A stretch of 64,000 nt of DNA from contig CAZXEE010000003.1 of NCBI GenBank assembly GCA_964639785.1, positions 21,384-85,383 on the forward strand, given 5' to 3'. The position numbers are program-made. The DNA is from an uncultured Gammaproteobacteria bacterium. Its GTDB lineage: Bacteria > Patescibacteriota > Patescibacteriia > Patescibacteriales > UBA12465. Within the stretch, counting starts at the first letter, position 1; each line of letters starts with the position of its first letter. Positions 24,001-27,000 of the stretch are shown piece after piece.

Positions 24001-27000
24001 GCTTCTTTTTTATCTAACGTTAGCACAATATAATCCGGTTTGAGATCGGATATTGCTTTTATCAGGAAAGTACAGAAGCCATAGACAGCATTAACCACCT
24101 GGCCAGACTTGGTAGTCATGGTTGGTGGAAGGGCATGAAAACTGCGGTGGATGATAGCGTTTCCGTCGATAATGATTAGTTTTTGGTTTGTCTTTGCCAT
24201 GGATATAGTTTATCATTTTTAGAGTAATAATCAAAATGGCATCAGTTGAGAAAAAATACCATAATGTGTTATACTGGGATAGAAATAATTAGTTTAATTA
24301 ATGGAACAAGAATATGATTAAAAAATTTTTGTGGTTATTTTTATTATTGCCCCTGCTTTTAGCCGGTTGCTCCCAGGTTAATAATAAGGAGTCTCAGGTT
24401 AGTCCGTTGGAAAACAAGACTATCCTTTTCTATGGCGATACCTGTCCTCATTGCAAGGTGTTGGAACAGTTCTTGGTTGATAATAAGATCAATGAACGGA
24501 TGACTATTGAAAAGAGAGAGGTCTATAATGATGCTGACAATGCTAAGCTGATGATGGATGCAGTTAATCGTTGCGCCTTATCGGAAGATAATGTCGGCGT
24601 TCCTTTCTTGTGGACTGAGGGCAAATGTTATATGGGTGGTGACGCTACTAGCTTTTTGAAAGTGAAATTTAATATCGATTAAATTATGAATAAGATAAAA
24701 ATATTTTCCGGATTGTTGTTATTGAATTTTTTGTTGATGTCTTCGGCCTCGGCTTTCTGTCCAGTCTGCGTCGTAGCGGCCGGTGCTGGTTTAGGTTTTT
24801 CTCGCTGGTTAGGAATCGATGATACTATCACCAGCTTATGGATCGGCGGACTATTAGTGGCCGTTTCAGCCTGGACTATCGATTGGTTGAAACGGAAGAA
24901 GATTAATTTTAAAGGCTTGAACTTTATTACCTATTTAGCTTATTATTCTATGGTTTTAATCCCTTTCTATACTACCGGATTCATCGGTCATCCTTTTAAC
25001 CGGTTATGGAATATTGATAAGATCTTTTTGGGTATTATGGTTGGCAGTATCGTTTTTTATTTCGTTGGCGACTGGTATCAATATCTAAAAAAGAAGAATA
25101 ATGGACACGCTTATTTTCCTTTCCAAAAAGTCGTTATGCCGCTCGGGTCTTTATTGATCTTGAGTTTCGCCTTTTATTTTATCACCAAATAATAAATCAA
25201 ACATATGGATATCAATCAAAAAGAATTGCAGAGCTTCATTGATAAGATGGACAACCTGAAGAAGGATAATAAGCTGGACTTGTCTTCTGACCAGGATTTG
25301 AGCATTGCGGTCATGAACCTGATCAGCATCGAAGAACATTTTTTCTTTTCCGGAGCTAAGACCGGCAACACGGATTACTATGACATGATTAAGGATATCA
25401 GGGAGATGAGAAAAGAGCTGATGCAGAAATTGATCAAGGAGTATGAGGGTGAGGTCTGGTGTATCTCTAAGCATCTTTTAGCCGCTTCCATGAGATTGAT
25501 GGAGGTTGGGACCAAGGAGATGGGACGGGGTCGCAAGGAAGATGCTTATGAATTATTTAACAAGGCTTATAACCTCTATTCTTTATTCTGGGGCTTAAAC
25601 ATGAAATTGATCAATACCGGTGATATCAAGAAGATTGATGATGAAGCGCTGGACAAGCACGATCACGAGAAGAAAGGCTTTATGGGAAAGCTGGGTGATT
25701 TAATCAAAAAAGCTATCAACTGTTGCCTAGAATAATATCATTTTAAACAGATAAGAAGCCGCTATATAAGGCGGCTTTTTTGTTGACAAAAAGTTATTTT
25801 CAGTTTATTATTACCAGTTAATTAACTGTTATTTGAAAACTACAAAAAAAGCATAAACAATGGAGAAAATTACTGAATTTCAGAATGCCTTGGCGTCTAA
25901 AGCCTTCGAGTCTGAAAAGACTTTGGGGCGCAAGAACCAGGATGATCCGGAGCAGTTTCTTTTTGGGATTTTAGATCCCTTCGAAATTGACATTTGGAAA
26001 ATCAAACAATCAAAAAGCCTTCGGGCTTTGAATGGCAAGACTCAAGTCTGGCCGGTAGCCGACAATCCTTTGGTCAGGAATCGATTGACGCACACCCTGG
26101 AAGTGGAATCTCTGGCCAGTTTGATAGCTCGCGTTTTGGGACTTAATGACAAGCTGACAAGCGCTATCGCCTTGGCTCATGATTTGGGTCATGCTCCTTT
26201 CGGACACATGTTTGAGAGGGTGATCAGTCGGATTGTTGGAGATGAATTCCGACACGAAATATTCGGACCGATTTTAATTCAGGAAATTGAACGGCAGGGG
26301 CGAGGACTGAATCTGTCTTTCGAAGTTTTGGAAGGAGTCACTAGGCATTCCCGGGGTGGTGGCAGTTTGATAGTCGAAGAAGGCTTTCCGTTGGAGTACG
26401 ACGTTGTCATGTACGCTGATAAGCTGGCCTATCTGTTTTCTGATATTAATGATGCCGTTCGGCAGAATTATATTCAGATTAAAGATATGCCGGAATCTTT
26501 GAAATTCTTAGGCGACAATCAGAGGGCTCAGATCAACTCTTGCCTGGCAGCCCTTTTTAAAGAAAGCGCTGAGCGCGGTTATGTTTCTTTTGCTAACTCG
26601 CCTGAAGCGGCAGCTTTTGAGACTTGTCGGAAATGGATGTATCGGAATGTTTATGAAAAATTGGACCTTGATAAGGGTCGCATTGATCATGAACAAGACA
26701 TTGAGAATGCTTTTTCCTTCGTCCATAATTATTTTTGTCTGGAGATGGCTGACGCAGCCGTTGTTTTGGCCACCATGACTGACAGGGAAGTGTTATTGCT
26801 TTCTAAACTGAAGAATGATGCCAGGATAATCGATGTTCAGAATCTTAATCAGATGGGATTTGTGGAACGTTTGGAATATTGCAAGGGCGTCGGTTTCAGC
26901 AAGGAGGATATTGATTTTTCCTGGGCTGGGAAGTGATTCTAAGGAGAAAAAACAAAACAAAAACGGGTTAACCAATAACCCGTTTTTTATTTTATCAATT

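Follow-up and report, generated by a model that had tools for sequence, protein, structure and literature searches.

A cassette of three close-packed genes, found at 24314-25735 of a 64,000-nucleotide stretch of patescibacterial DNA (contig CAZXEE010000003.1, positions 21,384 to 85,383; called the window below), is probably an uncharacterised and new kind of membrane thiol relay. It encodes a lipoprotein with a thioredoxin/glutaredoxin-like (Trx/Grx-like) domain, a membrane protein with a single CPxC cysteine pair, and a predicted cytoplasmic protein, ORF3, with three cysteines. We put the probability that the three genes form a transmembrane thiol relay, running in either direction, at about 0.55. 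The case is built from sequence comparison: close linkage, natural fusions, conserved cysteines, an assignable topology and, in the searches described below, no homology to known systems. An envelope thiol relay made of a thioredoxin-fold protein and a membrane partner is known as a kind; what is new here is the use of two families unrelated to any known one and an obligatory cytoplasmic partner. A literature search returned no description of a Dsb-type system in Patescibacteria, nor of the families of gene 2 or ORF3.

Organisation and linkage of the cassette

The genes and their flanking signals are arranged along the window as follows.

24246-24275, + strand: promoter-like site upstream of the cassette (TTGAGA, 18 nt, TG-TATACT), putative, by consensus match
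24314-24682, + strand: gene 1, Trx/Grx-like lipoprotein of 122 residues with lipobox LLAGC and CPHC
24686-25192, + strand: gene 2, membrane protein of 168 residues whose only cysteines form CPVC
25205-25735, + strand: gene 3 (ORF3), all-helical protein of 176 residues with 3 Cys and the C-terminus NCCLE
25756-25781, + strand: intrinsic-terminator-like hairpin (AAGCCGC, loop, GCGGCTT, then TTTTTT)
25783-25811, + strand: near-consensus promoter-like site for the next gene, following the terminator-like hairpin

The three reading frames lie on the same strand with gaps of 3 and 12 nucleotides (nt). The promoter-like site before them matches the consensus at 10 of 12 positions and has in addition an extended -10 TG, whilst in the terminator-like element behind them the G+C-rich hairpin itself spans 25756-25777 and is followed by six T. 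As judged from these signals, 24314-25735 is a promoter-to-terminator operon of three genes. An earlier, sequence-only reading of the window had described the three frames, the lipobox LLAGC, CPHC, the arrangement SSASA/F-CPVC, the CCLE end and the terminator-like hairpin, all of which we found as claimed. A phage or defence origin of the cassette was ruled out, with no PADLOC or PHROGs match.

Linkage was assessed over ~0.93 Mb of fetched sequence, which covers 80 loci, each from a different species. In 75 of them gene 2 is followed directly by ORF3; of the five others, four are cut off by the end of the contig and L025 alone would have space for the gene, giving 75/76 where room exists. Starting from four ORF3 homologues on long contigs, a gene of ~170 residues was found immediately upstream in all four. 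A Trx-like gene is placed immediately upstream of gene 2 in 57/80 loci, the other 23 having unrelated neighbours, and the median gaps are 1 nt between genes 1 and 2 and 6 nt between genes 2 and 3.

Natural fusions of the Trx-like domain to the membrane protein occur in 13 of the 150 best gene 2 family clusters, in the order signal peptide, Grx-like CxxC domain, transmembrane (TM) helix, K-rich loop, TM helix ending in AxA, and CPxC domain; downstream of one such fusion ORF3 is still encoded. In a second form, present on three contigs, the CPxC membrane protein (P0325, L088 6001-6918) bears at its N-terminus a cytoplasmic Nitro_FeMo-Co (NifX/NifB-C-like) domain. There, a split ArsP_1-like permease is encoded upstream of the fusion and an ORF3 homologue with the ending DCCRE downstream of it, whilst a Trx-like gene is missing. 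The synteny of 75/76 and 57/80, together with the fusions, rules out chance adjacency. The earlier proposal that the Trx-like and CPxC proteins are functional partners is thus borne out by their synteny, short spacing and fusion. Its picture of a minimal pair with the third gene as a bystander has to be given up, since ORF3, with three invariant cysteines, is the partner most tightly linked to gene 2; we therefore regard the trio rather than the pair as the functional unit. Gene order defines this unit as the membrane protein with ORF3, usually accompanied by the Trx-like protein.

The family is large. A word-indexed search gave more than 965 relatives of gene 2 at E < 1e-3, an exhaustive search gave 575 family clusters at 50% identity, and at least 528 gene 2 loci were confirmed in species-representative genomes. 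These belong mostly to Patescibacteria, very small bacteria that live as symbionts, the main carriers being Falkow-, Moran-, Magasanik-, Uhr-, Nealson- and Berkelbacteria and Paceibacterota, and a search for cultured or characterised carriers returned only metagenome-assembled genomes. The family is not confined to Patescibacteria. A contig of 'Coxiella sp. DG_40' (LIZW01000013.1, locus L091) has the same cassette at 9628-11054, with products of 123, 169 and 178 residues, between secG and rpsF. The same contig carries DotM/DotL-type Dot/Icm genes, ZapD and an outer-membrane beta-barrel protein, and from this gene content we conclude that the carrier is a genuine gammaproteobacterium. For many other loci the labels read Gammaproteobacteria, Bdellovibrionales or Micavibrio and are unconfirmed. 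At one alphaproteobacterium-labelled locus (L068, contig MFD04428) the G+C content is 0.62 for the locus and 0.49 for the membrane gene, which could reflect horizontal acquisition or an assembly chimera.

The three cassette proteins

The gene 2 product has exactly two cysteines, in F-CPVC at residues 25-28 (nt 24758-24769), right behind SSASA. Its signal-peptide-like N-terminus ends in AxA, and CPVC then lies where a Gly/Ala-rich re-entrant helix (26-41) begins, with TM helices following at 46-70, 78-96, 112-137 and 147-167. Invariant residues of the family include A23, C25, P26, C28, G35, G37, I44, D45 and D46. CPxC is present in 78 of 79 scorable loci (the remaining one has CQVC), and before it Ala is found at -1, and A, V, T or S at -3, in 78/78 loci. 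The K/N-rich inner loops are highly conserved. The inward-facing K/R-rich loops (KRKK; KKKNNGHAYFPFQK), the extra TM helix in the Trx fusions and the cytoplasmic Nitro_FeMo-Co fusion together place the N-terminus inside and the Trx domain outside. The predicted topology is N-terminus in, four helices in the mature protein and C-terminus out.

No cysteine beyond CPxC is found in 202 of 351 gene 2 relatives. An extra outer-loop CxC occurs in 52 of the 351 (~15%) and in 19/80 loci, between the second and third mature helices at a position equivalent to residues 97-111 of the window protein. In this subfamily C-x-C-G takes the place of L-W-G (N-x-L-C-x-C-G-x-D-K), giving a second Cys pair. The sequence-only reading, which had the protein lacking a second pair, is therefore correct for the window protein and not for the family as a whole.

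The depth of the CPxC pair in the membrane was estimated by mean-field direct-coupling analysis of 412 non-identical gene 2 sequences (effective number 311). The analysis recovers the TM3-TM4 and TM5-TM6 hairpins. The top coupling, V29-A59, has a value of 3.16 and F38-I113 one of 2.21, against peaks of 1.5-1.9 in column-shuffled controls. With S50 and I113 taken as the outer level of the membrane and K69 and L78 as the inner level, A59 falls at mid-membrane. From V29-A59 and F38-I113, taken with the register of TM3 and TM4, helix 26-41 is expected to lie alongside TM3 in antiparallel orientation, its C-terminal end reaching the outer face. C25 and C28 would then lie at or below the mid-plane of the bilayer, assuming a straight helix as in the AF2 model (pLDDT 87.7). 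This differs from the earlier placing of CPVC at the outer end of helix 1, co-variation putting the pair about halfway or deeper into the bilayer.

No Pfam/NCBIfam family was matched by the gene 2 product, either with the window protein (Pfam E up to 1) or with 35 members scanned singly (E up to 5). The one consistent signal, a weak similarity to DUF3007, which we take to be a cyanobacterial and plastid family of unknown function, recurs over residues 21-71 (window 24746-24898) in 19 of the 35 members, always sub-threshold (E 0.0086-0.6). Single-sequence and profile searches of the family against PDB sequences gave nothing meaningful, and a Foldseek search of the PDB with the AF2 model gave no match with E < 1. 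The probability from hhalign was 0.7% against E. coli DsbB and 1.1% against six aligned ArsG/CcdA-like proteins taken from these loci. Three candidate identities were rejected on these and related grounds: DsbB, by the hhalign value, no PF02600 match, no PDB fold and the lack of the second essential Cys pair; VKOR, by no PF07884 match and no fold or sequence match in the PDB; and a CcdA/DsbD domain (PF02683, PF13386), by the hhalign value, no Pfam/NCBIfam match and the position of both cysteines on one helix. By these searches the gene 2 product belongs to an undescribed family.

ORF3 has neither a signal peptide nor a TM segment, and its product is predicted to be cytoplasmic. Its three cysteines are C86 (nt 25460-25462) and the pair in C173-C174-x-E176 (nt 25721-25732). 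About 55 residues are invariant across 73 species copies, among them E43 E44 H45, E83 W85 C86 S88 K89 H90, E100, Y125, W129, N132 and C173 C174 x E176; C86 and CC-x-E at the very C-terminus are present in all intact locus copies. The homologue at L036 is truncated and has no CC-x-E end. Relatives number at least 8000; identity to the query is 74-100% among the best 120, every one of which is named 'hypothetical'. The AF2 model has seven helices (pLDDT 71.7) and found no Foldseek match in the PDB with E < 1, a single-sequence search of the PDB gave nothing meaningful, and the best hit of the ORF3 profile among PDB sequences was a designed coiled coil (E 0.42). There was no Pfam/NCBIfam match, also when 26 relatives were scanned singly, and family scans found no DNA-binding, kinase, anti-sigma or other signalling domain. 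An Erv/ALR or Ero1 sulfhydryl oxidase was considered and rejected, there being no fold or sequence match and one internal cysteine. By these comparisons ORF3 represents an undescribed, extremely conserved family, with identities of 75-95%.

The gene 1 product carries MIKKFLWLFLLLPLLLAGC, which contains the lipobox LLAGC, and YGDTCPHCKVLE. CPHC occupies residues 44-47 (codons at nt 24443-24454), and there are three other cysteines, that of the lipobox among them. The family invariants are C44 P45 H46 C47, E69, N76, C87, P97, C105 and G108, where P97 is the cis-Pro and C87 and C105 make up a second invariant Cys pair. CPHC is kept in 52 of 56 orthologues and a lipobox or N-terminal anchor in all of them, so that the check on CxxC conservation proposed in the sequence-only reading came out positively for both proteins. 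Pfam/NCBIfam scans gave matches to Glutaredoxin, Glrx-like and Thioredoxin (E ~0.01-0.1), all scoring under the curated cut-offs, and no DSBA model match. The closest solved relative is an 84-residue glutaredoxin, 7c10 (E 0.013), and a fused homologue, P0253, reached 22.4 bits, the cut-off being 22.9. The motif order (ILFYG-CPHC, GVPFLW, C-x-x-G) is that expected of a minimal fold of the glutaredoxin/NrdH type, and the fold assignment is made on sequence rather than on a predicted structure. The mature domain of ~85-100 residues is without the inserted helical domain of DsbA. The product is best described as having a probable minimal glutaredoxin-like thioredoxin fold; the earlier label 'DsbA-type' applies to its extracytoplasmic CPHC tetrad, which with the invariant P97 is a trait of the DsbA family, and not to its fold.

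Two unusual proteins contain this domain. At L053 (5232-6020), ArsF-like and CPHC Grx-like domains are fused in a single reading frame. At L025 (1525-3027), a signal peptide and two Grx-like domains, one with CPHC and one with CSQC, share a 500-residue protein with a multi-pass membrane domain that is DsbD_2-like and has Cys motifs of its own, from which it follows that the Grx-like CPHC domain also pairs with a membrane partner of the CcdA/DsbD type.

Proposed electron flow through the cassette

The redox proposal for the cassette is left standing by the conserved cysteines, by the synteny and by the absence of a match to a non-redox family in the scans. As a route for the electrons, we suggest that cytoplasmic ORF3 would dock on the K/N-rich loops conserved on the inner side of the membrane protein and that its C-terminal CC-x-E tail would exchange electrons with the single CPxC pair. 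From its position deep in the bilayer, at the start of the re-entrant helix, CPxC would exchange in turn with the CPHC of the outer-face Grx-like protein, the outer-loop CxC of ~15% of members offering a possible intermediate step. The physical contacts, the insertion of the tail, the thiol exchange among the three proteins and the direction of flow are what we infer from the data. For the direction, outward (reductive) flow is our tentative choice, at well under even odds. It is favoured because of the precedent of CcdA/DsbD, the reducing cytoplasm and the lack of an evident high-potential acceptor. Outward flow would keep the CPHC protein reduced and so able to repair the disulfides of Cys-rich pilins and surface proteins or to isomerise them.

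In the CcdA/DsbD architecture a single buried Cys pair goes together with a thiol donor in the cytoplasm and a Trx-fold acceptor outside. The cassette has the same three tiers (cytoplasmic thiol protein, buried membrane Cys pair, outer Trx-fold CxxC protein), and as in CcdA/DsbD relays its Trx domain is naturally fused to the membrane domain. The linkage, fusions, topology and CPxC position are all compatible with this relay principle. The ArsE-ArsG-ArsF trio, which is of the CcdA/DsbD type and is encoded on the same strand in some loci, has the three-tier arrangement of the cassette as well. The components themselves differ. Gene 2 is without sequence or profile similarity to CcdA/DsbD; it has four helices and a re-entrant helix where CcdA/DsbD has six helices in two pseudo-symmetric halves, and both its cysteines are in CPxC on one helix where CcdA/DsbD has one on each of two helices. 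The cytoplasmic partner of CcdA/DsbD is thioredoxin, whereas that of the cassette is the dedicated all-helical, three-Cys ORF3.

A likeness to the DsbA-DsbB and VKOR-thioredoxin pairs can also be seen, in that an outer CPHC Trx-fold protein is co-encoded or fused with a small helical protein bearing CxxC at the end of an intramembrane helix. The second outer-loop Cys pair of DsbB and VKOR has a counterpart in a minority of gene 2 members, but most have a single pair, a quinone site is not recognisable in the sequence, and the membrane protein, unlike DsbB and VKOR, has an obligatory cytoplasmic partner. The gene 1 product, for its part, differs from DsbA in having no helical insertion and weak Grx matches. 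By analogy, the logic of the cassette appears to resemble CcdA/DsbD-type or MerT-type relays more than DsbA/DsbB. The sequence-only reading had assigned an oxidising, disulfide-forming direction, and the architecture fits reductive CcdA/DsbD relays at least as well.

That direction was argued from Cys-rich exported proteins in the window, which are real. They are listed here with a further gene.

38066-39322, + strand: prepilin-type protein with 18 Cys, N_methyl and Fib_succ_major domains
61167-63860, + strand: T4SS_pilin-domain protein of 897 residues with 25 Cys (one in the signal peptide)
4138-4731, - strand: rubrerythrin

Rubrerythrin is typical of anaerobes, and the two pilin-type proteins are unusually Cys-rich for an organism encoding it. 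More generally, exported-like proteins at the fetched loci have an even number of cysteines in 37 cases and an odd number in 12 (p = 5e-4), whereas cytoplasmic-like proteins have no such bias (189 even, 216 odd). With homologues collapsed, the exported-like counts become 21 even and 10 odd (p = 0.07; Fisher p = 0.035 against the cytoplasmic set); the test used crude signal-peptide heuristics over the ~0.93 Mb. These counts suggest that disulfides are made in these organisms, by whatever system.

Together with the Cys-rich pilin-type proteins they point to a need for the relay proposed above, and they bear equally on an oxidative system, which we consider rather unlikely. Here a DsbA-like CPHC protein would oxidise the exported pilins and surface proteins and would be re-oxidised by the CPxC protein, as by DsbB or VKOR, with the electrons leaving through ORF3, a cofactor-bearing cytoplasmic helical-bundle oxidase or sink in place of quinone. 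The even-Cys bias and the very Cys-rich pilin-type proteins would call for an oxidant, and the tetrad kept in 52/56 orthologues is that of E. coli DsbA. However, the tetrads of DsbC and DsbG are similarly oxidising and yet are kept reduced, so CPHC leaves the direction unfixed. The outer-loop CxC of 52/351 relatives resembles the shuttle pairs of DsbB, VKOR and Erv2, although the searches made gave no homology or fold likeness to DsbB, VKOR, Erv or Ero1. The ArsG module found beside the cassette in ~8% of loci (see below) would be sensible if the two ran in opposite directions. ORF3 is a helical bundle whose ~55 invariant residues, Glu, His, Tyr and Trp among them, would suit a cofactor site better than a plain carrier, but a cofactor motif was not recognised, and oxidative membrane partners are not known to work with a protein of the cytoplasm. 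A fermentative, reducing cytoplasm would moreover require a high-potential acceptor, none of which is evident, and there is the rubrerythrin in the window.

A shade less probable again is that ORF3 itself makes disulfides de novo with a cofactor and exports oxidising equivalents through CPxC to the CPHC lipoprotein. ORF3 is like Erv/ALR and Ero1 in being a helical bundle with a Cys-bearing, flexible C-terminal tail (in Erv2 a CGC tail shuttles disulfides); unlike them it has no CxxC beside a flavin site and a single internal cysteine, and it is predicted to be cytoplasmic.

Gene neighbourhood and significance

Most loci sit among housekeeping genes, such as those for PolA, ThrRS, SecG and ribosomal proteins. 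About 12-15 of the 80 (L018, L024, L039, L053, L055, L063 and others) have an extra same-strand cluster within ~4 kb, made up of an ArsR/SmtB regulator, an MTH895/ArsE-type thioredoxin, a SaoE/SO_0444/ArsP-type permease, an ArsF-type outer thioredoxin (CxSC) and the CcdA-like ArsG; the permease, ArsF-type and ArsG proteins score above NCBIfam cut-offs. The CcdA-like (ArsG) module, with its own outer thioredoxin, stands beside the cassette in ~8% of loci. A P-type ATPase with an HMA domain is found nearby in six loci, and MntP adjoins the cassette in the window (26999-27505, - strand) and in L085. Next to MntP and near the cassette, the window encodes at 27725-28201 (- strand) a protein of 158 residues with 7 Cys (CCPKFDP, then CPKC) that strongly matches PF20603 'Bacterial hydrolase' (224 bits).

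This neighbourhood is relevant to a metal hand-over of the MerP-MerT-MerA kind, a distinctly improbable explanation in our view. The CPHC protein would capture Cu(I), Hg(II), As(III), Cd or Zn and pass it by way of CPxC to ORF3, whose three-Cys site (C86, C173, C174, perhaps with His) would store, detoxify or distribute the ion. The general architecture is that of the mer chain: an outer CxxC protein, vicinal intramembrane cysteines next to Pro and a cytoplasmic C-terminal CC. The three invariant ORF3 cysteines resemble S3 sites for As(III) or Cu(I). A minority of loci have ArsR/SmtB, the SaoE/SO_0444/ArsP-type permease, ArsE, ArsF, ArsG or (six loci) HMA P-type ATPases, MntP is adjacent in the window and L085, and in one lineage the cytoplasmic Nitro_FeMo-Co domain, which binds metal clusters, is fused to the membrane protein. 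Against this, metal genes are adjacent in only ~15-20% of loci, most of the context being housekeeping, and such strong conservation in reduced genomes would be unusual for an accessory resistance trait. The outer protein keeps a Trx/Grx fold with CPHC, cis-Pro and a structural Cys pair, a fold other than that of a metallochaperone, and the cytoplasmic-face Cys pair of MerT has no counterpart in the membrane protein. Pfam/NCBIfam scans of the cassette proteins gave no match to HMA, MerP, MerT, MerC, MerF or another metal family.

As a redox sensor, CPxC would report the redox state of the envelope as set by the CPHC protein, and would alter the conformation or release of ORF3 as the effector. 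The close pairing of two genes, one for a membrane protein and one for a soluble protein of the cytoplasm, the highly conserved inner loops of the former and the ArsR-type regulators upstream in some loci are consistent with this. It is nevertheless very improbable: the family scans found in ORF3 no signalling domain of the kinds listed above, a passive effector would have no need of three invariant cysteines, and extreme conservation is atypical of regulators.

Returning to the relay with outward flow, several observations weigh against it. The evidence for contact between ORF3 and the membrane protein is their gene order, and as the membrane protein has no cytoplasmic-loop cysteine the ORF3 tail must enter it. 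The conserved signal-peptidase-like site just before CPxC suggests an N-terminus created at the outer face, which fits poorly with deep burial of the pair. CPHC is the classic oxidase tetrad, and the CcdA-like module adjacent in some genomes makes a second reductive relay look redundant. ORF3 is conserved far beyond the needs of a simple thiol carrier, a hint that a cofactor or some other chemistry is involved; genes concerned with metals or metalloids occur several times among the neighbours; and ~29% of loci have no nearby Trx-like gene.

To our knowledge Patescibacteria are without respiratory chains and quinones, and for this reason the textbook DsbB and VKOR routes should fail in them. 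The proteins of the cassette are small and hence directly testable in E. coli dsb mutants, and the gammaproteobacterial carrier with Dot/Icm genes may offer a path to a more tractable host. If the reductive relay is true, the CcdA/DsbD principle would have been invented twice, independently; the metal hand-over, if true, would be a new uptake or detoxification route; and the oxidative reading, if true, a new quinone-free way of making disulfides. Were ORF3 to make disulfides de novo, it would be a third, evolutionarily unrelated and quinone-independent solution after DsbB and VKOR, and would explain the folding of Cys-rich pilins in Patescibacteria that do not respire. A large part of bacterial diversity belongs to the Patescibacteria (CPR), which rely on pili and surface proteins for an attached life, and the cassette is a concrete candidate for the handling of extracellular cysteines in these organisms.

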